A stretch of DNA of 63,919 nucleotides, counting the filler, from Atractiella rhizophila (taxonomy: Eukaryota), in the NCBI GenBank assembly GCA_021432655.1. It is 4 parts of 3 records of this genome, joined end to end, with 100 filler letters (N's around TTAATTAATTAA, not from the genome) between each part and the next. Parts side by side here need not be neighbours in the genome. Positions count along the whole stretch, not along the records: positions 1 to 31,593 come from MU271694.1; 3 more parts are not named here. The stretch is one strand, 5' to 3'. The first letter of the stretch is position 1. Each line of letters starts with the position of its first letter. This document shows, piece by piece, positions 19,979 to 62,617 of this stretch. Position numbers and translations under genes: made by a program. The notes under the pieces are model-generated. The model did no database searches. It had not been told where the DNA came from and saw nothing but the letters and a program-made list of their open reading frames with translations.

Positions 19979-21144
19979 ATGGTAGATTTTGTCAAGCTCG
20001 CAGGCTTTCTGTTTGAAACCGGATTGAAAATCTGTGAACTTCGGGGACTGGTTCGTGCTTTCTTCCAAAAAGTGCGAGCTCCTGACCAACTGTGGCTTAG
20101 ATGAAAGACAACTCGGAAGAGTTCAAGTCTCTTCCTGGCCGGATCTTTACACTGTCTAGCTTGACCAGGATGGCTACTGAGAAAGGGGTCCCGCAAGAGA
20201 ATAACGCCATAGTCCACCGGTGAGTCAAGCCTATTGCAGTTTTGATTCCTTTGTTCTTTGAATAATGAAGGAAGGATAGTGTGATTGCGGACGCTAAAAC
20301 AGTGCACAAGCTAATCGCAAAGCAACTGGATGCCTTTTTAGGTGGCATGAGGTATGCCCACAGCATCAAGAAGGGATTGGAGGAGCTCTCTCGAGGCGTC
20401 GACAAGGCGATTGCATTATACAGCGTAGGCTCTTCCTCCATACTAGTAGTTAGCAAAACCTCATCAATTCTTGCAGGCCACAAACATTGTACACCTTTAC
20501 CAGATCGTCAACGCCATTAAACTGGAACTGGAGAAGGTTTCTAGCGGCACCGCAAACCTGGTACGCTGTACCCGTTAGTTAACTGGACTCAGTATTTCTT
20601 CACAGACTCTAAACATTACAGAAGTGTTGACGGTCGTCAACGCCATTGCGACCAATCAAGTCGTGCAAGGCAGTCTCATCCAGGAACCGGGTGCTCGCGC
20701 CGACTCGATTTCGCGCAAGCTTCAGAATGTTCCAGAGGCGAAGTTGAAGCGAGCTAGTATCTGTAGCATTGTGACCACTATCGAAGGCATGGAATTCAAA
20801 CGCAACAGTATGGTGCAAGACGCCACACCCATGGACTCTCAACGCAATATCGACTTTATGGCACAGTTCTATGGCGAATGCTTGGTTACAACGGAATCGT
20901 CTCGACCTACACAGAATCTTCAAGTCTTGCGGGAAGAGAATGAAGTTTGTGAAAAGGTTTGCTTCTGCCTACTTCCAATCAAAGGCTGACGTTGATACCG
21001 CAGGAAGAGACCTTAGCACCGTCCTCACATCCAAAGGACTCACCAGCTCTTTCCCAAAAGTCTGAGGAAGGAGGTGGACCTCCACCTTACTCGGAATCAC
21101 GTGATGATAGGGCTTTGGTATGTACATTCTTCGTTCAGAGATAA
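19979..21144 (+). CDS. Multi-exon protein with an N-terminal MLKL/RPW8/HeLo-like helical-bundle-type domain and a C-terminal PPPY motif
   Basis: Canonical introns join MVDFVKLAGFLFETGLKICELRGL|MKDNSEEFKSLPGRIFTLSSLTRM...VHR|VIADAKTVHKLIAKQLDAFLGGMRYAHSIKKGLEELSRGVDKAIALYS|...; the last exon read contains GGGPPPYSES. Domain call is by pattern only and the 3' end is uncertain. Confidence 0.5.
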
Positions 21145-21291
21145 GTGGCGAATAGATAATGTTTGTCCTTGCCACGTCGGAGTGATCTGGTGGATCAACC
21201 GGAATCATCGCTCATGAGAGCTTCTGGTATCTCTCATCTGCTCTCTATGGTTCACTTTCCTTTTTTTTCTCCGTATTGATAGGGTGGTTGA

Positions 21292-22042
21292 ATGTCTAGC
21301 TCATCATACCAGATCAATAAAGGACATTCAAAGCAAAACACATCTTCTTCGTTCTATCAACAAAACGCTACGTATCAGGGCACCTTCGTCTGCATGATCC
21401 AGCAATTTACTAACTTTGTCTCCGTCTTTTAGCCTTACGGTTGGGTTAAGCAATGGAATGAACAGTACAGCCGCTACTTTTACGTTGATGTCCGGGCGAA
21501 TCCTCCGCGCTCAGTTTGGGAGCATCCACTGAACACAGATGAATACAAGGTGTCCGCCCTTCCTCCCTCTCATGGCCCTGCAGTGGGTCCTCCTCCCGCC
21601 TGTCCACCTGGTGGTTCCTCAGGACGCAATCAGAGAAGTATGTTCCAATACCATCAGTCTGGTCGGACCCTGCCACCACATCAACAGGCCTACAATCCTT
21701 ATCCCCAACATGGTGGACACAGTGGACCTCCATCCGGTGCATTTGGAGGACCACCTCTGGGAGTGAGTTGTTTGGACTGTTTGAATTCTGTTACACCCAG
21801 TTGTTGACTTTTGCAAAGATGTACGGCGGGTATCCTGGTCAGTACGGCGGTCCTCCATATGTTGGATATCCGGGTTACCGTCCACCTCCGAGGGTGTGTG
21901 GTAGATGTTATTGATCCTATATTTTTTACTCATGTGGGAACAGGTGTACTACTATGGCCCCCCTCCCAGTGGATACTATCCTCAGCAAAACTTTGTTGGA
22001 CCACCTATTCTCTATACTTTCCCCCCTCTCGCTGGTCTCTAA
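21292..22042 (+). CDS. WW-domain protein with a Pro/Gly/Tyr-rich low-complexity tail (Wwm1-like)
   Basis: The exon from 21433 reads PYGWVKQWNEQYSRYFYVDVRANPPRSVWEHP (WW signature W..YFYVD..W.HP), followed by PGY-rich exons. First exon and start are uncertain. Confidence 0.75.
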
Positions 22043-22220
22043 TCCTCACTCTTGTTAACTATAACCAGGATGGATTACGCATCTGAATGGGGAACAAATG
22101 ACAATTTGGTATCAATTTGGTGTTTCGCTGTATGATATACCACAGAGTGGGTTGTAACAATGAATCATTTGCCATATTAGAACAATGTCCTTCTGTCTGC
22201 TTGCTGCCGTCTCCCACTAT

Positions 22221-22865
22221 TACTACTATTCCTTCACGATGGAACTGTTCCGTCAGCCTACTAACAGTACTTTAGGGTTCAACCCTGGCTCTTTCAGGAA
22301 TGAGATCCAGGCTGAATCCTTGCCTCCTGGGCACCTAGGGTACAACCCTGCCTCTGTCAGGAACAGGATCCTGGCTGAATCCTGGCCTCCTCGCGGCCCA
22401 GGGTACAACCCTGCCTGTGTCAGGACATGATCCTGCCTACATCCTTGCCTCCTCGCCGCCTAGGGTACAACCCTGCCTATGTCAGGAACAGGATCCTACT
22501 ACTATTCCTTCGCGACGGAACTGTTCCGTCAGTCAAATTTGGCTGGGGAACGGAGTTAGGGTCAGGGCCAGGATGAGTCCGTCAGCCCAGTTGCGAGGCT
22601 CTGACTGACGGAACTAACCTGACGGGACGGAACGCACCGTTGAGTCCCGTCAGCTCGGACGCGACGGCCAAATTGTCTCGCGAGGTTGGGATCAGCCCCG
22701 ATGCGAAGCTCAAACATGTGAGGTTCATCGCGTGGGCACGAAGATCGCTACCAGTCGCAAAGTGGGCACTTCGGGTCGCTGGCTGGCTGCAACGTGCGAA
22801 GTGCCTTCCAGTCGCGAAAGGTGAAGTTTAGTTCAGCGATGGGTTGCAACGTGCGAAATGCCCCC
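22221..22865 (+). mobile_element. Stacked truncated element ends: module X (22221-22256 and 22497-22865) alternating with the end of the 63-bp-repeat element (22259-22494)
   Basis: TACTACTATTCCTTC(A/G)CGA(T/C)GGAACTGTTCCGTCAG occurs at 22221 and 22497. X carries the palindrome GACGGAA-CTG-TTCCGTC and scattered GACGG/CCGTC and TGCAACGTGCGAA repeats. Confidence 0.5.
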
Positions 22866-22867
22866 TA

Positions 22868-23650
22868 CTAAGGGTACTTTAGGGTTCAACCCTGGCTCTT
22901 TCAGGAATGAGATCCAGGCTGAATCCTTGCCTCCTGGGCACATAGGGTACAACCCTGCCTATGTCAGGAACTGGATCCCGGCTGAATCCTTGCCTCCTCG
23001 TGGCCCAGCGTACAACCCTGCCTATGTCAGGACATGATCCTGCCTACATCCTTGCCTCCTCGCTGCCTAGGGTACAACCCTGCCTCTTTCAGGAATGAGA
23101 TCCAGGCTGAATCCTTGCCTCCTCGCGGCCCAGGGTACAACCCTGCCTATGTCAGGACGTGATCCTGCCTACATCCTTGCCTCTTAAGCAGCCAAGGTAT
23201 GAACCTGATGCTGTCAGGAACAGGATGCTGTGTACATCTTTGCCTCCTCGCCGCCTAGGGTACAACCCTGCCTATGTCAGGAACAGGATCCTGGCTGAAT
23301 CCTTGCCTCCTCGCGGCCCAGGGTACAACCCTGCCTGTATCAGGACATGATCCTGGCTAGATCCTTGCCTGTTAGGCACCCAGGGTACGACCCTGATGCT
23401 ATCAGGAACAGGATCCCACCTACATCCTTGCTTCCTCGCCGCCTAGGGTACAACCCTGTGTGTGTCACAAACAGGATCCTGGCTATATCCTTGCCCCTCC
23501 ATGCCGCTCAGGTTGCAACACTGCCTCTGCCAGGAACAGGATCCTGGCTATATCCTTGCCTCCTAGGCACCCAAGGTGCGACCCTGCCCCAATAAAAACA
23601 GCATCATTACAAAACTGTTGTCTCTTAGTCAACCAGGGTAGAACCCTGCC
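22868..23650 (+). repeat. Tandem array A, 62-64-bp period, ~13 units (4 more at 22261-22494; ~5 inverted units at ~29085-29363)
   Basis: Core (C/T)AGGGT-ACA-ACCCTG recurs at about 22882, 22945, 23008, 23070, 23133, 23195, 23258, 23321, 23383, 23446, 23510, 23573 and 23636. Confidence 0.9.
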
Positions 23651-23879
23651 ATAGATAGGAATAACAATCCAGTCAAATTGTCATGTACGTATAAACACTC
23701 GCAGGCACAGGCAATGTCCTCTCTAAGACATCTTAAAACACTTATATATTGAAATCCTTGCTTCATTGGAGAGCTTTGGTTCATATTTCGCATATATGTC
23801 CAATTGAACAAAGTACATTCAAAGTTGCAAAATTAATTTATAACATTTAGCAATGTGTTTGCTGTACGTTATTGTCGAT

Positions 23880-24315
23880 AAGTGCAATTTTGGCAAAACC
23901 GCGCCAGATTGATAGGTTATCGACATCAGGTAGAGAGGGGTCGTATGAGTACAATTTTGTTGAAAGTGGCCCATGTCGATAGGTTATCGACACCAGGTAT
24001 AGAGGGGTCTGAGGGGTGCAATTTTGTTGAAAGTGGCCCATGTCGATAGGTTATCGACACCTCGTGTAGAGGGGTCTGAGGGGAGCAATTTTGTTGAAAG
24101 TGGCCCATGTCGACAGGTTTTCGACACAGGAGCCGAGGGGCAATTTTGTTCAAAACGTTCCCAGTCGATAGGTTATCGACACTGGTGTAGAGGGGGTCTG
24201 AAAAGAGCAATTTCGCTCAAAACGTCACCAGTCGATAGGTTATCGACACAGGAGCCGAGGGGGTCACAGCAGGGCAATTTCATTCAAAACGTTCCCAGTC
24301 AATAGGTTAACACCA
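23880..24315 (+). repeat. Tandem array B, 67-bp period, 7 units (one shortened to 55 bp)
   Basis: Palindromic core GTCGATA-GGT-TATCGAC (some copies degenerate), with its GAT at 23911, 23978, 24045, 24112, 24167, 24234 and 24301. Confidence 0.9.
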
Positions 24316-25034
24316 AAGGTAGCCCAAGAGGATGTCGAAACCTATATATACATGCAATTTCCATATCCATGATATATCGGTGCCACACCGATGCTCTAGC
24401 TCCACATGCTTGACGTGATAAAACGTTCGTTCAGCCCAGGCTCACCATAGCATGTTTTACATTCTTGGTCTCACTCCTCTTACATTCAGTAGACATATAA
24501 ATGACAAACGGTTTAGAATCGCATAATATGCGCTTGTCTTCATGTAAAATCTTTCAGGAATGATCTTATTTATGGGAACTCAAATCATTCTATCATCTAT
24601 TTATCGTCATCTTCGATCATAATGATTCAAACCACACTCTTTAATAGGTCACATTTGTTAAATCATTCTTACACGTTGTTATTTTAATTATATTAATATT
24701 TTTAAGGCCTCCATCATCGTGATCATTGGTCATACACTCAAGTTTGTGGATATACCCGATTGCTTCTGCACAATTTGCCCCCTTGATTGCTCAAGGATAC
24801 ATCCATTGCATGTACTACTTTCAGCAGGATATCAATTTATCCATGCCCGTAATCAATCTTAAGTGGCTGCATGGCTCAGTTTCACAAAATTTTCGTGCTC
24901 AGACCCCCCTACATCAGGTGTCGATAACCTATCGACATGGGCCAGTTTTAACAAAATTGCACTCCTTGGACCCCTTTACACCTAGTGTCGATAACCTATG
25001 TACATGCCTNNNNNNNNNNNNNNNNNNNNNNNNN

Positions 25035-28000
25035 TGCAAGGGTCAGTTATCCAATTGTGGTTTCCATCGGGTTCTCCTACAGCTTTGGATATATATGTAC
25101 GTTAAAGGTATAGGTACTATATAGCCACGGTGTGGCTACGAGATCGAGGTGTACGAACTGCACTATTTTGCAAGCAAGTCGGGTCCGAGTGGTATCGTAC
25201 AAAATGTAAGAACCAGAGTGAGGAGAATGTAAGTCATCTGTATATTTACTGTTTGCCAAATCTTAGCGTATTATACGCGAACAGAAGTACATTTTAGAAA
25301 GTCCTTACTAGAATAAATACCCTTGAGTTTAGTAAGATAGTAGATAAATAGCAGTAGAAGCTAGTATTACTAAGTTTGGTGTGAGAAATTATCCAGTGTA
25401 AACAATTTAGTAAGAATGTGCAACAATAAAATTAATATAATTATAAAAATTCCGGAGGTAGTAGCACTAGTAACCAGTATGTGAGTTCAAACACCTATAT
25501 GGGCTAACGAAGACGTGTTAAACGGGGGAACTAACGAGTTCCTATGTAGGTAACGTACATGATGAAAGTCGTCCTATAGTTAAATAGGTACGGGCATTAG
25601 TTAGAATTCACCGACGTACCGAGTCAAAGTGTTTTAAAAGCACGAGTCTGGGGGGATGTAGTCCACAGCTATTGGATAGCTGTACCCGGTCAAAATTGTT
25701 TTAACGTGAGGAACCTGGGGAAATGTGGATCACAGCTATTGGATACATGTACGGAGTCAAACTTACTTTAAAAGCTAGAGTCTGGGGGATGTGGTCCACA
25801 GCTATTGGATAGCTGTACCCGGTCAAAGGTGTTTTAACGTGAGGAGTTTGGGGGTATGTGGACCACAGCTATTGGATAACTGTACCCAGTCAAACTTACT
25901 TTAAAAGCAAGAGTCTGGGGAGATGTGGACGACAGCTATTGGAAAGCTGTACCCGGTCAAAGTTGGTTTAACGTGAGGAGTCTGGGGGGATGTGGACCAC
26001 AGCTATTGGATAGCTGTACCCAGTCAAAGTTGGTTCAACGTGAAGAGTTTGGGGAGAAGTCAACAACAGCTATTGGATAACTGGACCGGGTCAAAATGGT
26101 TTTAACGTGAATCTCAATTGTTGCATATCTGGTGTGTAGAGTTGGTAATATTAAATTAAAACGTTGAAAATTACAGAACCACTATATACTATTTATATTT
26201 GGTCTCGTCAGATGCCTTCGTTCCTAAAGTTACCTATTCACTAAATTCTACACAGAATCTCTCCTGTAACGGACACGGACGATCACAAATACGCATGCAC
26301 TGTAAAACTGAGCTAACAATAAGAATAGACAGCGACCCAAGATGGGACTAACTGATTCTCGGTCAAAGCACTACTACAACAAAAATAACGTCCGTCCCAG
26401 CATGGGATTCCACGGATTCTCCGGTCCTACATCGGTCCTAGAAGAAGGACTGTCTCCGTCCCAACATGGGATCTGCCGGTCCTCCGTTCCTAAGTCGGAC
26501 CTAGATCAAGGACTGTCTCCGTCCCAACATGGGACCTGCCGGTCCTCCGTTCCTAAGTCGGTCATAGATCAAGGACTGTCTCCGTCCCAACTTGGGATTT
26601 CATGACAATCATCGTGTAGTTTTTAAGAGGGTGGACCACCGCAGTCGGGGAGATATCCACAATGAGGATACTAGGACTCGTATTTCGGAACGTAATATCT
26701 CTCTAAGGGAAAGTGACTCGTGATCATGTGAGTCCTATCCCACAAGGTCAGTGAGGTAATACCTGTGACACTTGATCCACAAAAGCGATCTAAGTGTGGA
26801 CCTCTCGCAACCAGAGGACTTCCTAAGGAGGACGTAAAGTTACTGCTTTAAAAGCAGGTTTATTTCGATCGTTTATAGTCATTTGTGAAGACTATTAATG
26901 GATATGTCTATTGTACAGTCTATAGCTATACTATCTAGGGTCGTTGCTGAGACGACCGCTACGGGACGACCTCTACTACTGCTTAGGTGGTTAGTGCTTA
27001 CCCAGTCGGTATAGCCTGGTGCGACGACGGGATTAGTCTCGACGTTAATGTTTCTAAGTCACTCAAGATGAGAGTCTCCGTTTGGTGTCTGATTTTTAGT
27101 AGTGGCGAGCTATTTTTCCGAAGTTCGATTCTCCCCAGTGCGACGAGTGTCCTGAAGTGTCGTCGACTAGTTCCTAAACTCACTACTTTTCTGTGGGTTT
27201 CACTCAAGTATCGTAGGAGTAATGCGGGGAGTGTTGGGGGTATCTGGAAATTTGGTACCTAGCTACGGACCGGATGCTATCAGCTACCCCTACCTCTAGA
27301 CTTATTTGTCGATCTTCTGTACTTCTTTCAGTGTCAGTGTTTCCGACATGTCTGGTAACGTGTTACCTTCCTGGAGGTTCGTTTTGCGACGAAACCAATG
27401 ACACGACGTTTCCCTTCGTATCGCTAGCTCAACCGCTGTTTCGAGTTGTTCAAAATGTGGAGGGAGTGGCTTCGGGTGGGACTCGTCTTCCTATGGTAAC
27501 TATCCCTTGCTTTCGACCGGAGGCTTAGTACCCTCCGTGAGTCTTTCCTGCGGTAGTAGGTCCCTTTTCGACGTCGTCTACTTAAGCTCGTCGTTTTTGC
27601 GGAGCCTGTACTTTCGTCTTTCGAACTATGAAACTTGTCCCAGGCTCACTCAGATGAGAGGAGACCGTGGCTTGGACGACTCTTGTGATGGTTTCCGTTT
27701 TTCGTTCGGGTTGTCTGGGGTCTCTGGGCCTGTTCTAGCTGCCCCTAGTGTTTCTCCTTCCCCGTCCCCTCCTTTTGCGTACATCGTTCATCTTTGTCTG
27801 TAGTGAAGAGTTTCTTTGCACCTTACTTCCTATACGATGTGTAGTAACTAGCACGTTTCTCTTGAGCTCTTTCGCAGTCTGTTTGTAACGTTTTTGTGTT
27901 AGACTTGGGACTACTCTGGGACTAGTCCAAGTAGCTCGAACCCTAGGAACTAGCGGGGCATGTGCTGGGGTGTCCCTTTCCTGGTTCGCCTTCTCTTTTA

Positions 28001-28485
28001 TTGGAGGAGTCCGATCCGTTATTTAAGTATGGAACAGGCTTTGGTGCAGATCTGCAGTAGCTACTTCGGTAGCTTTCGAAGTTTGCCTGGTATTCCGAGT
28101 TCGTAATGAAAGTCCTGTTTCTTTTGAGACTCTAAGGAGCTACCTCCTGGTACTCACGGACCGTTGGGGGACTCTCGAGAGGTCTCGACCTTTCGCGCGG
28201 GACTCCTTTGATCTCGTACGAGACTTTCGCTTGGATCTGAGACATGTATCACGTCTGTTCGTTTTGTACAGTTTGGTGAGTTCTTCTCCGGATCTTACGA
28301 ACAATGTTGTTGGTCTGTATGAACATTATAACTGTCTGTTCTTAGAGCCGATGCGCCGGCAGCTATACCCGACCATACAGAGTGTTCGTGACTACGTGGA
28401 GCTTTTATTTCTGCAGATGGGACACTGTTTGCTCCTCTCCCGGGAACGACGGTGCTCACTGCTCCCAATCCCAATCCCAATCCCA
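25035..28485. other. Complemented-but-not-reversed copy of the flanking sequence (assembly/gap-fill artefact); all ORFs listed inside it are spurious
   Basis: 25035 TGCAAGGGTCAGTTATCC is the base-wise complement of 24289 ACGTTCCCAGTCAATAGG. The match runs through 25009, continues into 28509 onward and into the Penelope-like ORF. The block is preceded by a 25-N gap. Confidence 0.95.
28464..28485. repeat. Telomeric repeat visible only after complementing: (CCCAAT)3CCCA = GGGTTAGGGTTAGGGTTAGGGT
   Basis: These are the last 22 nt of the complemented block. TTAGGG is the common fungal telomere unit. Confidence 0.8.
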
Positions 28486-28865
28486 GTCGATAACCTATGT
28501 ACATGCCTCAGTTTGAATGAAATTTTCGATCTCAGACCCCCTACACCAGGTGTCGATAACCTATCGACATGGGCCAGTTTCCACAAAATTGCACTCCTCA
28601 AACCCCCATACACCTGGTGTCGATAACCTATTGACATGGGTCAGTTTGAATGAAATTTTCGTTCTCAGACCCCTCTACACCTGCTGTCGATAACCTTTCG
28701 ACATGGGCCAGTTTCAACCAAATTGCACTCCTCAGACCCCCCTACACCTGGTGTCGATAACCTATCGACATGGGTCAGTTTCAACCAAGTTGCACTTCTC
28801 AAACCCCTCTTCAGTTGTTGTCGATAACCTATTGACCTGGCCCAGTTTTACCAAAATTGCACTTA
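28486..28865 (-). repeat. Inverted copy of tandem array B (begins at ~24880-25009, left of the gap)
   Basis: GTCGATAACCTATCGAC-type cores at 24920, 24987 (=28486), 28552, 28619, 28686, 28753 and 28820. Confidence 0.9.
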
Positions 28866-29621
28866 GAGTTAACAACGTATAGACCACACATCTCAACCAT
28901 TATAATTTAATTTTGCAACTTTTAATGTCTTGGTGATATATGATAAATATAAACCAGAGCAGTCTACGGAAGCAAGGATTTCAATGGATAAGTGATTTAA
29001 GATGTGTCTTAGAGAGGACATTGCCTGTGCCTGCTAGTGTTTATGCGTACGTGACATTTTGACTCGATTGTTATTCTTATCTGTCGCTGGGTTCTACCCT
29101 GATTGACTAAGAGCCAGTTTCGTGATGATGTTGTTTTTATTGCAGGCAGGGTCGTACCCTAAGGTGCCTAAGAGGCCAGGATGTAGCCAGGATCTTCTTC
29201 CTGACAGAGGCAGGGTTGTACCCTAGACGGCCAGGAGGCAAGGATTCAGCCTGGATCTAGTTCCTGACAGAGGCAGGGTTGTACCCTGGACGGCCAGGAG
29301 GCAAGGATTCAGCCAGTATCTAGTTCCTGACAGAGGCAGGGTTGAACCCTAAAGTACTGTTAGTAGCACATCAAAAATTCTCCCACCTGGTGGCGTCAGC
29401 CCCTCTATAGGTGTTACTCCTATGATCCTGAGCATAAAGCCTTGCATTATAGAGAGATTCCCTTTCACTGAGCACTAGTACACTCAGGATAGGGTGTTCC
29501 AGTCACTCCATTATGGACACTGTGAACTAGGTGTTTTCGCTAGATTCACACCTGGAGAGCGTTGGTCTCCTGATGGCCATCTAAGTGGTGGCCTGAAGGA
29601 TTCCTCCTGCATTTCAATGAC

Positions 29622-31113
29622 GAAATTTTCGTCCAAATAAAGCTAGCAAATATCAGTAAACACTTCTGATAATTACCTATACAGATAACATGTCAGATAT
29701 CGATATGATAGATCCCAGCAACGACTCTGCTGGCGATGCCCTGCTGGAGATGATGACGAATCCACCAATCACGAATGGGTCAGCCATATCGGACCACGCT
29801 GCTGCCCTAATCAGAGCTGCAATTACAAAGATTCAGTGAGTTCTACTCTCAGAAGCAAACCACAGACTAAAAATCATCACCGCTCGATAAAAAAGCCTCA
29901 AACTAAGAGGGGTCACGCTGCTCACAGGACTTCACAACAGCTGATCAAGGATTTGAGTGATGAAAAGACACCCAAAGTAAGTTCATAGCATCCTCATTAC
30001 GCCCCTCACAACCCCCATAGACCTTTAAACCATGGATCGATGCCTGGCCTACGATAGTCGATGGGGATGGAGATCTGAATAAACAGCTAGAAGACATGAA
30101 GAAAGTCACAGTCACAAAGGCTGTACAGACCATTGCACAATGGAAGGACCTCCAAGCAAAACGCTGCTTTGGTTACTGTGCTGCAAAGGGAAGCATAGCG
30201 ATCGAGTTGGCGACAAAGCTCAACAAGTTTTACACCTCCCTCACCGAAGCCCACCCTGAGCAGAAGGATACCATTGATAGGGAACGAAAGCTGGCCTCCG
30301 AATCATGGGAGGCACTCAGAAAGGACGCCATCATCCAGGGAAAAGCTGCAGCAGATGAATTCGAGCAGAAATTTTCGTCCAAATAAAGCTAGCAAATATC
30401 AGTAAACACTTCTGATAATTACCTATACAGATAACATGTCAGATATCGATATGATAGATCCCAGCAACGACTCTGCTGGCGATGCCCTGCTGGAGATGAT
30501 GACGAATCCACCAATCACGAATGGGTCAGCCATATCGGACCACGCTGCTGCCCTAATCAGAGCTGCAATTACAAAGATTCAGTGAGTTCTACTCTCAGAA
30601 GCAAACCACAGACTAAAAATCATCACCGCTCGATAAAAAAGCCTCAAACTAAGAGGGGTCACGCTGCTCACAGGACTTCACAACAGCTGATCAAGGATTT
30701 GAGTGATGAAAAGACACCCAAAGTAAGTTCATAGCATCCTCATTACGCCCCTCACAACCCCCATAGACCTTTAAACCATGGATCGATGCCTGGCCTACGA
30801 TAGTCGATGGGGATGGAGATCTAAAGAAACAGCTAGAAGACATGAAGAAAGTCACAGTCACAAAGGCTGTACAGACCATTGCACAATGGAAGGACCTCCA
30901 AGCAAAACGCTGCTTTGGTTACTGTGCTGCAAAGGGAAGCATAGCGATCGAGTTGGCGACAAAGCTCAACAAGTTTTACACCTCCCTCACCGAAGCCCAC
31001 CCTGAGCAGAAGGATACCATTGATAGGGAACGAAAGCTGGCCTCCGAATCATGGGAGGCACTCAGAAAGGACGCCATCATCCAGGGAAAAGCTGCAGCAG
31101 ATGAATTCGAGCA
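29622..31113 (+). repeat. 746-bp near-identical tandem duplication of the PLE 5' region (29622-30367 and 30368-31113)
   Basis: Direct comparison; the only difference noticed is CTGAATAAAC vs CTAAAGAAAC. Confidence 0.9.
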
Positions 31114-31593
31114 GCAAAAACGCCTCGGACATGAAAGCAGAAAGCTTGACACTTTGAACAGGGTCCGAGTGAGTCTACTCTCCTCTGGCACCGAACCTGC
31201 TGAGAACACTACCAAAGGCAAAAAGCAAGCCCAACAGACCCCAGAGACCCGGACAAGATCGACGGGGATCACAAAGAGGAAGGGGCAGGGGAGGAAAACG
31301 CATGTAGCAAGTAGAAACAGACATCACTTCTCAAAGAAACGTGGAATGAAGGATATGCTACACATCATTGATCGTGCAAAGAGAACTCGAGAAAGCGTCA
31401 GACAAACATTGCAAAAACACAATCTGAATCCTGATGAGACCGTGATCAGGTTCATCGAGCTTGGGATCCTTGATTGCCCCGTACATGACCTTACGGGGAA
31501 AGGACTAAGCGGAAGAGAAAAGGACCTCCTCAGGCTAGGCAATAAATTCATACCTTGTCCGAAACCACGCCTAGACGTCATCGATGAAGCCAT
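30436..31593 (+). CDS. PLE polyprotein N-terminal region, spliced, 3'-incomplete
   Basis: ATG at 30436 (MSDIDMIDP...). A phase-0 GTAAGT..CTCAC..ATAG intron at 30723-30766 joins ...DLSDEKTPK|TFKPWIDAWP in frame with the listed 30842 ORF. An earlier GTGAGT intron is plausible but its acceptor is unclear. Confidence 0.6.
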
Positions 31594-31693
31594 NNNNNNN
31601 NNNNNNNNNNNNNNNNNNNNNNNNNNNNNNNNNNNNNTTAATTAATTAANNNNNNNNNNNNNNNNNNNNNNNNNNNNNNNNNNNNNNNNNNNN
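31594..31693. other. 100-nt scaffolding placeholder with a synthetic TTAATTAATTAA linker (also at 51801-51900 and 62329-62428)
   Basis: Identical N44-TTAATTAATTAA-N44 layout occurs three times; the linker puts stop codons in all six frames. Confidence 0.95.
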
Positions 31694-31884
31694 TGTTTAT
31701 CAACTCCATAACTATGATTCGATTTATATAATGTAATGTGTTTGAGGAACCAGAATGACCCATAGGATAAGACAAACACATCGTAGCGTCAGATGGAGAA
31801 AAACATTAATTATTTAAGAATAGGTATACCCAGTCAATCACAAGCATTCACATCGCATCCTCGCGAGATTCACAGAAACGACTG

Positions 31885-33746
31885 TCAAACAGTTTTCTCG
31901 CCCGCCATATCATCTCTGGCTCCGACCGTTGTGCTGGACCTGTTAGCCATGGTGTTGTCGCCCAACTCGTCGTAAGTAGGAGTACAACCTTCTTCGACCA
32001 TCACGAAGCTTTCTCTGGGCTTTCGAGTAGGAGAAGGCTGAAGGAATCGAATGTTGAGCGGAGAGTCTGAACCAGCTGTTCCAAATCACGGTCATTGGTT
32101 GGCTCTAGAAAGAATGGATGAAGGTGGGGACGACGGACTGTAGATAAAGAGATCGTAGAGGAAGATTCCAACGATTCCTCCGCTGATACACGCAGCGGTA
32201 GGGAGCCATATACCTGTTTATCCATTAAATTGTCAAGGCAGAATCCTTTGGACACTGAGAAGATCATACCAGAGTAGGAGCGAATGGTCCAAATATCACT
32301 AGGATATCCAGCCATGGAAGCCATCATACGAGGACCCAAATCCTGCAACCATCAAAATTGTCGACGTTCAGCCATCATGCAAAGAAGCGATTGAGCAACG
32401 AACCCTAGCAGGATTGATAGCGAAACCAGTCAAGCTCCCAGTTGCCATCCCAACCCCACTGATAACCCAAAGGATGACCATCGGGCTCATTCCGACCGAA
32501 GGAGGCGTGTTCCTGACGTCTCCAACTGCGGCGACTGCTATCAAAAGCAGAGCAGTTCCGACGAGTTCAGCCACGAAAGCGGTTCCAATATCCACATAAT
32601 CGTGTTGAGGGCCAGTGACGAAAATTCCCACCGTATTGAGGGAGAGGTCGGCAGAACCAGCGGCGTGTTCGAACGAGTAGATGGACGTTCGAAAGATGGC
32701 AAACACGATGGCTGACCCAGCGATGGCACCGAGGAGCTGGGCAAAAATATACAGTGGAACTTTTCGGAGGGGAAAGCGCCGGAAGAGAGCCAGAGAAACC
32801 GTAACCGCTGGGTTGAGATGTGCACCAGAGATGCCTGACACCATCCACCCAATGATTCATTCGTCCTATATTCTCGCTTGGATGAGGGAAAAAGGGCAGA
32901 CAAACCACCAGCGACGTAGATTCCGACGAGAGCACCAATTCCCCAGCCGAAGCAGAGACTGAGCCAGTCTCCCTATTTCCAATCCGAAACGGAGCCATCA
33001 AAATCAGGAAGGATGTAAAAGAGATGCTCACCCTTGTGCCCCTCTCCAGCACGAATTGAGCAATTGCCCCTTCTCCAAAAAGGAGGAGAACCAGAGTTCC
33101 GAGAAACTATTGCCGTACACAATGGTTAGAGTCTGAAGGAAGAAACGAGTGAAGGAGGAAGGATGGAAGTAAAGGACGAGAATCTTACTTCAGCAAATGG
33201 TTCCCTGATCATATGCCTAACCTTCTCCCATGGATTATTAAACACAACCAAGATCTCTCCGTCTTCTTCCCCTTCTCTCAGCATACCAGTTCGGTTATGA
33301 GTGAGATCTATGACCGTATGAGGATTCGCTCCCGGTCCAAGGAGGGTCGGTTGCTTTGCCATCAGCCTATTCCCATTGGTATTCGCCTGTGATGGATTAG
33401 CTCCGAGGGTACAATTGCCAGTGTTGCTGGAGCGGGTGGAGAGAACAGGATTCCCAAGAGCATTCGCATTCTGATGCTGACCATCCATCCCATTCGTTCC
33501 TCGTCCCCCCAATATACCCTGTACCGTGTTCGTGGAACACGTAGGATCTCTTTGCAGGGCGAAATCAACAGCGGCTTGATGACCCTGATCTATTGCCTGT
33601 GCTTGAGCGTTGGGATAATTATGCTCGGTGGGATCGAGGACGAGGTGAGTACGGTGCGACTGTTTCGACGTTCCCGACGCTGAGTGTTGCATGGCAGGAA
33701 CACCCATGGGGACGGGTTGGACGACCGTCAGAGTCGAGGAGGCCAT
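31885..33746 (-). CDS. Aquaglyceroporin (MIP family) with a long N-terminal extension
   Basis: ISGAHLNPAVT and GFAINPAR(D) NPA boxes; REPFAE|FLGTLVLLLFGEG; hydrophobic helices. Confidence 0.9.
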
Positions 33747-48627: not shown

Positions 48628-50029
48628 TGAGCGACACAATTCCACTCTTTACTCCAAACCGGAACCTCCAAAGCTGTTGGTGCAGGAGCAACTGCCATTG
48701 CAAAACCAGATAAGAGATACACGGCTTCTAGCGCAGGATTATTATAAGCAGGCGACTGAGCAGGCAAGAGGGTTGACTGACAGGTGGATTGGGTGGGAGA
48801 GGGGTGTTGAGGGTATGTTTGTCTCTCTGAGAAGATTGGGCAAAAGGCTCGAGCAACGCTTCGGCCTGCTTAGCTTGTTTTGTCTTCCTCGCTGTGAGCT
48901 TGGCAGAGTATTGTGCTCTGTTTTGTCTGTGGACTCAATATGGCATCAACTGCTCTCAGCGGAGTCCGCTGATGATGCAAGTTGTAGCCGTTAAGTTGAT
49001 GGAAAGCAGGCAGCGTTCTTCCCAGTCCAAAACGTAGTTTGAACTGAACTGACCGTCACTGTTCGTAGACGAGGTCCACCGTGTTCTCCCTAAAGACGAG
49101 AAGCTAACGCCTGGGATACTCTAGTGAGCTTTCATTGTCTGAATAGCAGGAATATCCTAATTGCAACCAGTGTCGGCATCTCGTTTCTCGCTGGTTCTCT
49201 AGTTGCGCGAGGTCGTTCATTTCCCATCCGCCTACTTCTCCCTCCTACCTTCCTCGTCGGTTCCTCCATCTACTTCTTGCCCAAAACCTCTCAATCCATC
49301 CGTTCCTACTACAACCACCACGAGTCTTCACGCTTTCCTGATTTCCATAAAACACGGCAACAGTACATTCATTCGACTACCGAATGGGGGCGGAATAATC
49401 TGCAATGGGTTCAAGGATTGCAAGGCAAGGCGAAAGAATTGACACGTTCTGCGGTGCAGGAGGGAGAGAAGAGGACAGGTTTGAAACTGGGTTCCTTGGT
49501 TGATGAAGCAAGGGAGAAAATTGAGAAAGTGAAGGACAGCGAGATGGCGCAGAAAGCGCTGGGAGAAGTGAGGAAGCTGGAAAATGAGGCGGAGAAGACG
49601 ATCTACTTCTTGCCCAAAACCTCTCAATCCATCCGTTCCTACTACAACCACCACGAGTCTTCACGCTTTCCTGATTTCCATAAAACACGGCAACAGTACA
49701 TTCATTCGACTACCGAATGGGGGCGGAATAATCTGCAATGGGTTCAAGGATTGCAAGGCAAGGCGAAAGAATTGACACGTTCTGCGGTGCAGGAGGGAGA
49801 GAAGAGGACAGGTTTGAAACTGGGTTCCTTGGTTGATGAAGCAAGGGAGAAAATTGAGAAAGTGAAGGACAGCGAGATGGCGCAGAAAGCGCTGGGAGAA
49901 GTGAGGAAGCTGGAAAATGAGGCGGAGAAGACGGCACTTGTTATTGTGGAAGGGGTGAAAGGAAAGGGAGCAGAGACCAAAGATAAATTGGATGAAAACG
50001 TGGAGGAAAAGGTGGCGCCGAAGCCTTAG
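48628..50029 (+). CDS. MICOS subunit Mic26/Mic27 (apolipoprotein O family)
   Basis: LQNQIRDTR...DRWIGWERGVE|DEVHRVLPKDEKLTPGILY..GISFLAGSLVARGRSFPIRLLLPP..YFLPKTSQ. The ATG at 48628 is out of frame with LYSKPEP, so there may be an indel or a different start. Confidence 0.75.
49268..49933 (+). repeat. Exact in-frame 333-bp tandem duplication inside the MIC26/27 ORF
   Basis: 49268-49600 equals 49601-49933 (IYFLPKTSQ...ENEAEKT twice). Confidence 0.95.
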
Positions 50030-50189: not shown

Positions 50190-53100
50190 CTAGAAATATT
50201 TTGATTTGACGACGTCATCTTTCGTTCCTGTTTCTGCGCCAGCCTCCTCTTGAAACTTAGCTTGTAAATTCCTCAGCAAGCTAGTCTTCATCCTCTTCTC
50301 GAACAGCGCCTGATCTCCCTCACCAAGAGTAACCGTATTCTCGACCTTTTCGACTTGGCCAGTCGTTTGTGTCATTCCAGCGCCGGAGATCAAGCTCTGG
50401 TTGTCCTTAGAAGCTGAAGAAACCGACTCATCCAACTTGAGCTTCGATTGAGCTATGTTGTAGATATCCTCTTCGATCGTACCCCGACTGATTAAACGGA
50501 TCACGGTCACATCCCTTGTTTGACCTAGACGAAATGCTCGATCTTCTGCTTGTCGATCGTTATGAGGGTTGAAGTCTTGGTCGTGAATGATGACTGGAGC
50601 GCAACCCTGGATCAGACGATGAGAGAGAAAGGAAGACGAAAGGGTATACCTGTGTTAGCTGCCATCAAATTCAGTCCCAAGCCTCCTGCTCGAGTTGAGA
50701 GAAGGAAGACTGTGATGTCGGTATCCTCTGTGAAGGTATCGACGAGACCCTGCCGATCTGAAACTGTAGTTTGACCAGTGAGTTTGAGGTATCGAATTTG
50801 CATCGTATCGAGGACGGCCTCCAGGATATCAAGGACGCTTGTAAACTGCGAAAAGAGGAGAATACGGTCTCCTTTTTCTTTCAACTCAGGTATCAGTTGC
50901 CGGAGAACATCGATCTTTCCTCCCTGCATCCACGGCTCGTTCGGGAGCTTGTACTTCTGCAATGAGTGTCGAGTGGCACATATTCGATGGAGCTCGTAGT
51001 CCGTGTACAGCTCGAGCTCTTCGACAATGTGTTCGAGCTCAGAGTCCATGAAATCTGGCTCCATTAGACATGATTTGCTGATTTCTCGAACCTTTGCATC
51101 AGAGTAAAGCTTTCGAAAGAGCATCGGGTGATTCGCTGCCTTGCGAAGTTCCATGAGCACATTGGCGGAGGAGTTATTTGTCGTCTTCCTGCCTGTCTTC
51201 GTAGTCTTTGTGTTCTTCTTGACCTCTTCACTCGATTCTTCCCCTGCGAGTTTGTTAATGTCGGCGGCACCCAATAGGGTCTTTTTTGATCGAAGCTTTG
51301 CTTGTCGTGAGTTTTCAAACAATGAAATGAGCACAACACACACCATGGTTTCTCGATAGACTTGACGCTGCATGTCTGTGAGCTCGCAGTATTCGATGCG
51401 TTCCAATTTTTGAGGAAGATCTTTGAGAACCTGAAACTTTTTTCGCCGCAAGACAACTGGAAATGGACCATCAGCGCGTGTGCCAAAACCGAAAAGGACA
51501 CCTTACAAGGAGTCATCATCTTCTTGGCTCGAGTGATACGCTCTCGTGAAAAGTTTACTTGAGCTTCAGGAGGCACCTTAAAGATGGCGCGGAGACTTTC
51601 TGCGGCATCCTTGTCGAAAATGTGAGGCATGATGAAGCTGAGAAGGGACTGCATTCGAATGCATCTCCATCAGTTGGCACACACAAGGCGACTTATTTGA
51701 CACGGACCACGAGTTCCTGCAGATTGTTCTGCAACGGAGTGCCTGTCAGGAGCAGGCGCCATGAAACCCGTATTTGCATTAGCTCCTTGTACTTCTTTGA
51801 NNNNNNNNNNNNNNNNNNNNNNNNNNNNNNNNNNNNNNNNNNNNTTAATTAATTAANNNNNNNNNNNNNNNNNNNNNNNNNNNNNNNNNNNNNNNNNNNN
51901 AGGATTTCCCCCGAGCTCAACCCTTCTTGCTCTTTCCCTCCCTTCAAATTCACTATCGCTATCTCCACCAGAGAATACCGCTTCCTCCTCGTCCTCATCA
52001 TTGTTGTCCTCGATCTTCCTCTTCTTCCCTTTATTCGTATGTTCCGTTCTCTTAGGTTCCAACTTCTTTTGTAGTGGCGGAGGCTTCGATGTCTTGACAA
52101 TATAATTTTTGGCTGGAGGTTGTGATGGAGGTGGAGCAGCAGAAATCACCCTGTCTCTCCCCCTCTTCTCCATCACAGCCTCCCTCGCTCTCCCAGCATC
52201 CGTTCCAAACTCTGCCCTCAGCTGCTTCAGTTCCGAACCTGAGAGCCGGAGATCCATAAGATCGTCGAGGAACTTCTTCTCTCTGTCCTTCTCGCTCAGT
52301 TGTATCGATGCCACCTCCTTCGTTAGACCTAAGGAACTCGTAGACGATGCTGCACTCTCGTTGGTGCGGAGATAGGGACGCCGCGTCAATGTGACGGCCG
52401 GGGAAGAGTCGAGATTGACTGGGGAAGCTTTACGCTTGTTCTTGGAAGATGCAGAAGGGGTATCGAGGTTCATCACGCTGCGTCCGTTCGTTTGCTTTCC
52501 AGATGAGGAGGAGACTTGCTCTCCATCGTCCATCTCAACATCTGACGAATTGACGACAGTCTTTGCAGTCCGCTTCAATTTGATCTTGACAGACTTCCTC
52601 TGCTGGACGGGGCTACTCTTTTCTCCATGCCCTTCCTCATCTGAATGGATGACTCCGTGCTTGATCTTCACTCGTGCAGCACTCCGTGCAATCGATTGAG
52701 CGGCCGACTGCAGATCGAGATCGATCATATCGCTGTCGAGGGAGGAGCGGCGAGACGCGGAGGTGTTTGGAGGGGATGTGAGGATGATAGGCGAACTGAC
52801 CTCCTTCTTCTTTCCCTTCCCATTCCTGGCAACCTCCACCACCTCATCGCTAGACGGCACTTCCTCCTCCTCTTCCTCCACAGCCCTCCGAAGTTTCTTC
52901 TTCGGTCGCTCCTCCTTCTTTCCGGTGGCCTCATCACGTCGAGAAGTAGTAGGAACGCCACCCTTTCCCCAACCCACCTTCGTCGCGGCCTCCAGCATCG
53001 GATCAACATAGTCTTCTCCCACTCCAACAGACTCCTCTCTCCGCCCGCGCTTTCCATTGCCATTGTTATGCTTCTCAGGAAGCTTGAGCAAAATCTTCCT

Positions 53101-59189: not shown

Positions 59190-60094
59190 NNNNNNNNNNN
59201 NNNNNNNNNNNNNNNNNNNNNNNNNNNNNNNNNNNNNNNNNNNNNNNNNNNNNNNNNNNNNNNNNNNNNNNNNNNNNNNNNNNNNNNNNNNNNNNNNNNN
59301 NNNNNNNNNNNNNNNNNNNNNNNNNNNNNNNNNNNNNNNNNNNNNNNNNNNNNNNNNNNNNNNNNNNNNNNNNNNNNNNNNNNNNNNNNNNNNNNNNNNN
59401 NNNNNNNNNNNNNNNNNNNNNNNNNNNNNNNNNNNNNNNNNNNNNNNNNNNNNNNNNNNNNNNNNNNNNNNNNNNNNNNNNNNNNNNNNNNNNNNNNNNN
59501 NNNNNNNNNNNNNNNNNNNNNNNNNNNNNNNNNNNNNNNNNNNNNNNNNNNNNNNNNNNNNNNNNNNNNNNNNNNNNNNNNNNNNNNNNNNNNNNNNNNN
59601 NNNNNNNNNNNNNNNNNNNNNNNNNNNNNNNNNNNNNNNNNNNNNNNNNNNNNNNNNNNNNNNNNNNNNNNNNNNNNNNNNNNNNNNNNNNNNNNNNNNN
59701 NNNNNNNNNNNNNNNNNNNNNNNNNNNNNNNNNNNNNNNNNNNNNNNNNNNNNNNNNNNNNNNNNNNNNNNNNNNNNNNNNNNNNNNNNNNNNNNNNNNN
59801 NNNNNNNNNNNNNNNNNNNNNNNNNNNNNNNNNNNNNNNNNNNNNNNNNNNNNNNNNNNNNNNNNNNNNNNNNNNNNNNNNNNNNNNNNNNNNNNNNNNN
59901 NNNNNNNNNNNNNNNNNNNNNNNNNNNNNNNNNNNNNNNNNNNNNNNNNNNNNNNNNNNNNNNNNNNNNNNNNNNNNNNNNNNNNNNNNNNNNNNNNNNN
60001 NNNNNNNNNNNNNNNNNNNNNNNNNNNNNNNNNNNNNNNNNNNNNNNNNNNNNNNNNNNNNNNNNNNNNNNNNNNNNNNNNNNNNNNNNNNNNN

Positions 60095-62328: not shown

Positions 62329-62617
62329 NNNNNNNNNNNNNNNNNNNNNNNNNNNNNNNNNNNNNNNNNNNNTTAATTAATTAANNNNNNNNNNNNNNNN
62401 NNNNNNNNNNNNNNNNNNNNNNNNNNNNCTGATTTAACCTAGCTACTCTTTTCACGAAGGCGGAGGCATAGGTGCCACTGGTCTGTCTTCAACTCCACCG
62501 TATTGTCCTGAACTTATTATTGAAAACTGTAAAGGCGTTTGGGATTTTGGGACATATCTTGTTCACGACTCGAATTCAGGAGGTGATCTCGACCCTTCAA
62601 CCTCTGAAGACTCAGAT

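Follow-up and report, generated by a model that had tools for sequence, protein, structure and literature searches.

A block of 3451 nt in the Atractiella rhizophila assembly GCA_021432655.1 is written as the base-wise complement, without reversal, of sequence that is also present on both sides of it. The block lies within the 63 919 nt stretch of DNA analysed here (filler included), which is referred to as the window. It is almost certainly an artefact of assembly or scaffolding, in which a real piece from a variant copy was mis-written and pasted in where the DNA has no gap. Four direct observations carry this verdict: the block matches only as an unreversed complement, it is the one such match in the window, the two flanks overlap each other, and read contigs skip the block.

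Complement-only match of the block

Comparisons were made with X, the base-wise complement, unreversed, of window positions 25035–28485, in which x is the window position minus 25034 (Table 1). Aligned to the window in this form, X could be placed over 3037 nt at 99.4 % identity, and it is exact for the first 1786 nt. The beginning of X, x1–721, equals 24289–25009 (mismatches 0/721) and x699–1786 equals 28486–29573 (0/1088), the two matches overlapping by 23 nt because the 23-mer at 24987–25009 recurs at 28486–28508. Further on, x1782–2558 corresponds to 29592–30368 (6/777) and x2559–3037 to 31115–31593 (12/479). Past 29573, X differs from 29592–31593 by 18 mismatches, one 23 nt indel, and a 746 nt unit that is present once and not twice. 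It had been predicted that the block complements 24289–25009 base by base, which holds at every position. The match had also been predicted to continue to the right; this is exact up to 29573, but inexact beyond that point, and the last 414 nt are unmatched in the window. This tail of the block has no partner there because the contig ends at 31593.

Table 1. Features of the window at and around the complement-only block
Feature	Position	Strand	Description
Inverted-repeat left arm	23382..24309	+	Partner is 24925–25009 plus 28509–29350, continuous only without the block
Real left flank	24289..25009	+	Last part of the contig piece that precedes the spacer; copied by the first 721 nt of the block; covered by read contigs
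Shared 23-mer	24987..25009	+	Identical to 28486–28508; true overlap of the flanks
25-N spacer	25010..25034	.	Marks a gap absent from the DNA; read contigs join the flanks across it
Block, almost certainly an artefact	25035..28485	.	3451 nt; X in base-wise complement without reversal (equivalent to the opposite strand written backwards)
Block tail	28072..28485	.	414 nt, x3038–3451; without a partner in the window
AATCCC repeats	28464..28485	.	Base-wise complement of the TTAGGG telomere-type repeat; two overlapping matches, both here
Real right flank	28486..31593	+	Right arm of the inverted repeat, then the ORF-bearing repeat; copied from x699; covered by read contigs
23 nt insertion	29574..29596	+	In the window and not in X; bounded by a 5 nt CCTGA direct repeat
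746 nt tandem duplication	29622..31113	+	29622–30367 and 30368–31113, with 2 differences; single copy in X
N44-TTAATTAATTAA-N44 linker	31594..31693	.	Contig boundary in the concatenated record

A self-comparison of the window using 16-mers gave 7352 complement-only seeds, every one of which involves the block, and no second complement-only match was found in the window (0 seeds with both ends outside the block). The window was also compared with itself under 24 letter permutations in both directions, making 48 maps. Four of these are above background: the complement-only map (7326 seeds), direct repeats (3676 seeds), the reverse-only map (611 seeds), and the reverse complement (603 seeds). The remaining maps have no more than 8 seeds each, which is the background. 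The reverse-only signal is due to the block matching the left arm of the real inverted repeat. Chance is excluded as the source of the complement-only match. A complement-only or reversal-only relation, taken here as one mark of an artefact, is present in the block at 25035–28485.

It is the flanks, and not the block, that are in the correct form, because the left contig piece has ordinary eukaryotic genes that can be read as deposited, including a kynureninase C-terminal domain and S1/Rrp5-like repeats (Pfam). Domains of isopropylmalate synthase, G-alpha, SNF2 helicase, and gamma-glutamyltranspeptidase were identified in the later contig pieces, from a Pfam scan that took in 20 of the 70 listed window ORFs of at least 140 aa. 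Together with the TTAGGG repeat, these genes may point to a fungal origin. Within the block, open frames reach 153 aa at most in the deposited letters, as against 319 aa when complemented, and the 319 aa frame is that of the window ORF at 30767–31593, which it extends beyond the contig end without a change of frame. Biologically, the block is meaningful only when complemented. When complemented, the tail extends this same frame past the contig end and then, following a frame shift, reaches TTAGGG-type repeats. A blastn search with the tail region returned only a 37 nt overlap, with 31557–31593, and a search of both strands of the window showed that TTAGGGTTAGGG is absent from them.

Based on its 18 mismatches, its indel, and its 414 nt extension, X is considered to be independent real sequence. 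It is also considered to be a real variant copy, not one computed from the window, because contigs of one sequencing run (X1, below) carry the letter of X at four of the 20 differing positions (29854, 29937, 30823, and 30826). In the second run (X2), position 28996 of the right arm is immediately preceded, in one read contig, by a CCCTAA-type repeat (printed AACCCT...). The point at which copies of the repeat family meet telomere-type repeats appears to vary, and in the complemented block it is inside the ORF.

Flanks, read contigs and the joined locus

The 23-mer shared by the flanks occurs only twice in the window, with up to one mismatch allowed, and 0 occurrences are expected by chance. 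The original prediction had described both a 23 nt overlap of the real flanks and a 25-N spacer before the block, and both are present as described: the 23-mer is at those two places only and the block starts immediately after exactly 25 N. On its other side, the block passes into the right flank without any intervening N (28485/28486). X itself holds the direct join of the flanks (x699–721). In addition to these seams, the block is redundant with its surroundings, sharing 721 nt with the left flank and approximately 2.7 kb with the right. The pieces stand in the order in which they start on the true sequence, these being the left contig, X, 28486–30367, and 30368–31593, and this order may point to end-to-end pasting of pieces that overlap. 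The number 746 turns up twice, as 721 plus 25 N and as the period of the tandem duplication, as does 23, being the length of both the flank overlap and the indel; a link between the two 746s, or between the two 23s, was sought and none was worked out.

Read data were analysed as Logan contigs of X1 and X2, two public DNA runs that belong to one study and to one sample, possibly the source of the assembly itself, and therefore count as one independent source. Sampled words of 23500–31593 were present at 0.41 and 0.37 in the two runs. Across the block, depth is 0 in 12 of 12 bins (25120–28359) in both runs, in contigs that show presence better than absence and from which rare variants are dropped. 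Depth was seen in 17 of the 30 bins, all in the flanks. Each run has one contig in which 24986 is followed directly by 28486, skipping 3499 nt, with 23 letters that fit either side of the joint and 68 letters on its shorter side. The depth of the joint, 120.7 and 40.5 in the two runs, is similar to that of neighbouring unitigs (111–417 in X1), although in this repetitive region the bridging contig could in principle derive from another copy of the element. It had been predicted that reads would give zero cover on the block and would join 25009 to 28509, closing the gap, and contigs of this one sample agree on both points. Absence from the sequencing data, a further mark of an artefact, was found for the block in the contigs of both runs.

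When the flanks are joined at the 23-mer, a 947 nt inverted repeat with 77 % identity runs through the join (blastn). The arms are made up of 67 nt and 63 nt tandem units and the loop is approximately 615 nt. Judged by its sequence features, having long arms, tandem subrepeats, and a short loop, the joined locus is classed as a putative foldback-type structure. The ORF-bearing repeat adjoins this structure on the right.

Within the right flank, the window form of 29574–29596 is supported by contigs covering 29339–29718 (X1) and 29510–29718 (X2), with 0 differences in each. This segment contains a short inverted repeat (GGCCA...TGGCC) and resembles a natural indel or the footprint of an excision. 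For the 746 nt tandem duplication, read contigs cover both of the single-copy edge contexts (29339–29718 and 30707–31149), and the junction at 30367/30368 falls in a coverage hole that gives no verdict, with bin 30250–30519 uncovered and no joining contig in both runs. The duplication truncates one copy of the ORF, and it may be either genuine or a second product of pasting. At 49268–49933, an ORF with an ApoO/MICOS-type domain contains an exact, in-frame tandem duplication of 333 nt (111 aa, 0 differences), which either arose very recently or is a further artefact of the assembly. In both runs, contigs join 29718 to 31499, skipping 1780 nt with GA between (depth 145.8 and 71.1), and the form they represent is the ORF-bearing repeat with an internal deletion.

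Separate contigs have been joined to make up the window, as shown by three N44-TTAATTAATTAA-N44 linkers, two of which are beyond the one in Table 1 (51801–51900 and 62329–62428). Six-frame-stop spacers are used to concatenate contigs, according to the available part of one report (PMC4494045). There is also one gap of 905 N, at 59190–60094.

The ORF-bearing right repeat had been labelled as Penelope-like, and this label was not confirmed. For ORF 30767–31591, Pfam returned 0 families and Atlas no usable hit, and among longer proteins none of 2842 candidate homologues was at E≤0.001. Rfam returned 0 matches for 20000–32000 at E≤1, the hammerhead ribozyme included. No reverse transcriptase was found in the window ORF; as the contig ends before any reverse transcriptase could start, the repeat may nevertheless belong to the Penelope-like elements. 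N-terminal GxKF/Y and DKG motifs are named for these elements (PMC8557442, in the part available). The window ORF contains G-N-K-F, and D-K-N occurs in the shifted frame of the complemented tail, both being short motifs that are no proof alone.

Origin of the block and its consequences

In the proposed mechanism, X would derive, as a contig or a consensus, from a variant copy of the foldback-plus-ORF repeat, and it would span the true junction of the flanks and run 414 nt further into TTAGGG repeats. The simplest single fault would be that an opposite-strand piece was reversed but not complemented, at scaffolding or at gap improvement; alternatively, a spurious complement of a plus-strand piece would give the same string. 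X is collinear with both flanks in the written left-to-right order, which is the order expected of a piece that was put in the right place but only reversed. With the wrong letters, neither the 721 nt overlap with the left contig nor that of approximately 2.7 kb with the right contig would have been recognisable, and it is probably for this reason that X was pasted whole behind a minimal 25-N spacer and not merged. The flanks, truly overlapping by 23 nt, would then have stayed apart, with the 23 nt 'negative gap' never closed. A step of scaffolding or gap improvement would be consistent with the 25-N spacer taken together with this 'negative gap'. The original prediction had attributed the block to a gap-filling software error. 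That it is an artefact is supported by the contigs and by the complement-only match, whereas gap-filling software, like the failed operation and the pipeline step, belongs to the inferred part of this account.

Other origins would also account for some of these features. It is very unlikely that the block is an artefact of colour-space (two-base-encoded) data, decoded from the wrong seed base after the N run. In two-base encoding, a sequence and its base-wise complement share one colour string, the complement being one of three exchanges that preserve the colours. In keeping with this origin, the block begins right after the Ns, where a decoder would be without a preceding base, and the 23-base overlap amounts to 22 colours, which is k−1 for k=23. 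However, the other preserving exchanges are at background (4 seeds for A↔C+G↔T and 0 forward seeds for A↔G+C↔T), and this variant is rated below the reverse-only fault because these two exchanges are absent from the window. In addition, the letters return to normal at 28485/28486 without any N, the block duplicates its neighbours rather than replacing sequence in place, and platform information is absent from the record ('library not on record').

It is highly improbable that the locus truly holds an extra, inverted copy of X, as a reverse-complement duplication in which only the letters have been mis-written. A foldback-type repeat region is prone to inverted duplications, the left junction would be hidden by the N spacer, and the bridging contig may stem from another repeat copy, yet the flanks overlap by an exact 23-mer that is nowhere else in the window, X is collinear with both flanks as written, and the direct join in X1 has a depth of 120.7 as against 111–417 in the adjoining unitigs. 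There is only a vanishingly small probability that the block is real DNA, being an in vivo parallel complement ('swinger' A↔T+C↔G) of the neighbouring sequence. To our knowledge, no polymerase copies its template in parallel orientation. The type of exchange is exactly that reported for DNA, with a sharp switch inside a regular record (PMC4942731, in the part available), but depth over the block is zero and bridging contigs are present in both runs, the block follows an assembly spacer, its neighbours are duplicated and not replaced, and a one-line fault in string handling gives an identical string. The exchanged sequence was not found in the data from the organism, these being contigs that drop rare variants, and it is barely conceivable that the deposited letters are real in some cells or molecules that are too scarce to survive in read contigs.

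As a mis-written and pasted piece, the block inserts 3.5 kb that match nothing on either strand, splits the foldback repeat, and conceals 414 nt of real sequence with which the contig reaches the TTAGGG-type repeat. Spurious ORFs and spurious repeats had been anticipated and both occur. Of 38 listed stop-to-stop ORFs of at least 60 aa in 24000–31700, 18 overlap the block, which also contains four Tandem Repeats Finder arrays, with periods of 67, 134, 63, and 35. These arrays mirror the real ones of the right flank, where the period-63 and period-35 arrays are exactly 2753 nt downstream of their copies. The biological weight of the block is very low, because it is almost certainly a writing error in a deposited assembly; its main relevance is to data hygiene, and the record should be corrected. 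Self-comparison of k-mers under complement-only and reverse-only maps would find such blocks across assemblies.

Comparison with known systems

Palindromic or inverted-duplication chimeras are produced by missed hairpin adapters or are amplification chimeras, and they are true reverse complements that exist in the library. The block resembles them in being a spurious extra copy beside the original. Unlike them, it has no match on either strand, and the read contigs lack it.

In gap improvement by PBJelly, negative and 'overfilled' gaps are described and 25 N is the minimum gap length (PMC3504050); a 25-N threshold is also found in PMC6240028, both sources being available in part. As in the PBJelly cases, overlapping contigs are here kept apart by Ns, and a flank is extended into the gap with Ns remaining. 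Complement-only output, however, is undescribed in the available parts of these sources, and the present block is a whole overlapping piece and not a mere overhang. A literature search for phrases describing reverse-only or complement-only assembly errors found none among the matches listed, judged by titles and the beginnings of abstracts.

Among sources available in part, a single published biological interpretation of such blocks was found, the 'swinger DNA' of Seligmann. In the available part of that report, an A↔T+C↔G exchange affects the 16S rDNA in the otherwise regular mitogenome of the insect Kamimuria wangi, and swinger DNA is stated to have been found so far for this exchange only (PMC4942731). 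The present block is similarly a contiguous, sharp-edged block in a regular record, and it matches after A↔T+C↔G exchange without reversal. The swinger gene, in contrast, is replaced in place, whereas here the neighbours are duplicated after an N spacer. Swinger DNA has been read as an unusual state of the polymerase; unlike in that reading, the present block is shown to be an artefact, because the read contigs skip it. A handling error that is reverse-only or complement-only would yield exactly the one-rule pattern of swinger DNA. The block is a read-tested example that A↔T+C↔G blocks in public records can be artefacts, and as such it bears on claims of unusual polymerisation.
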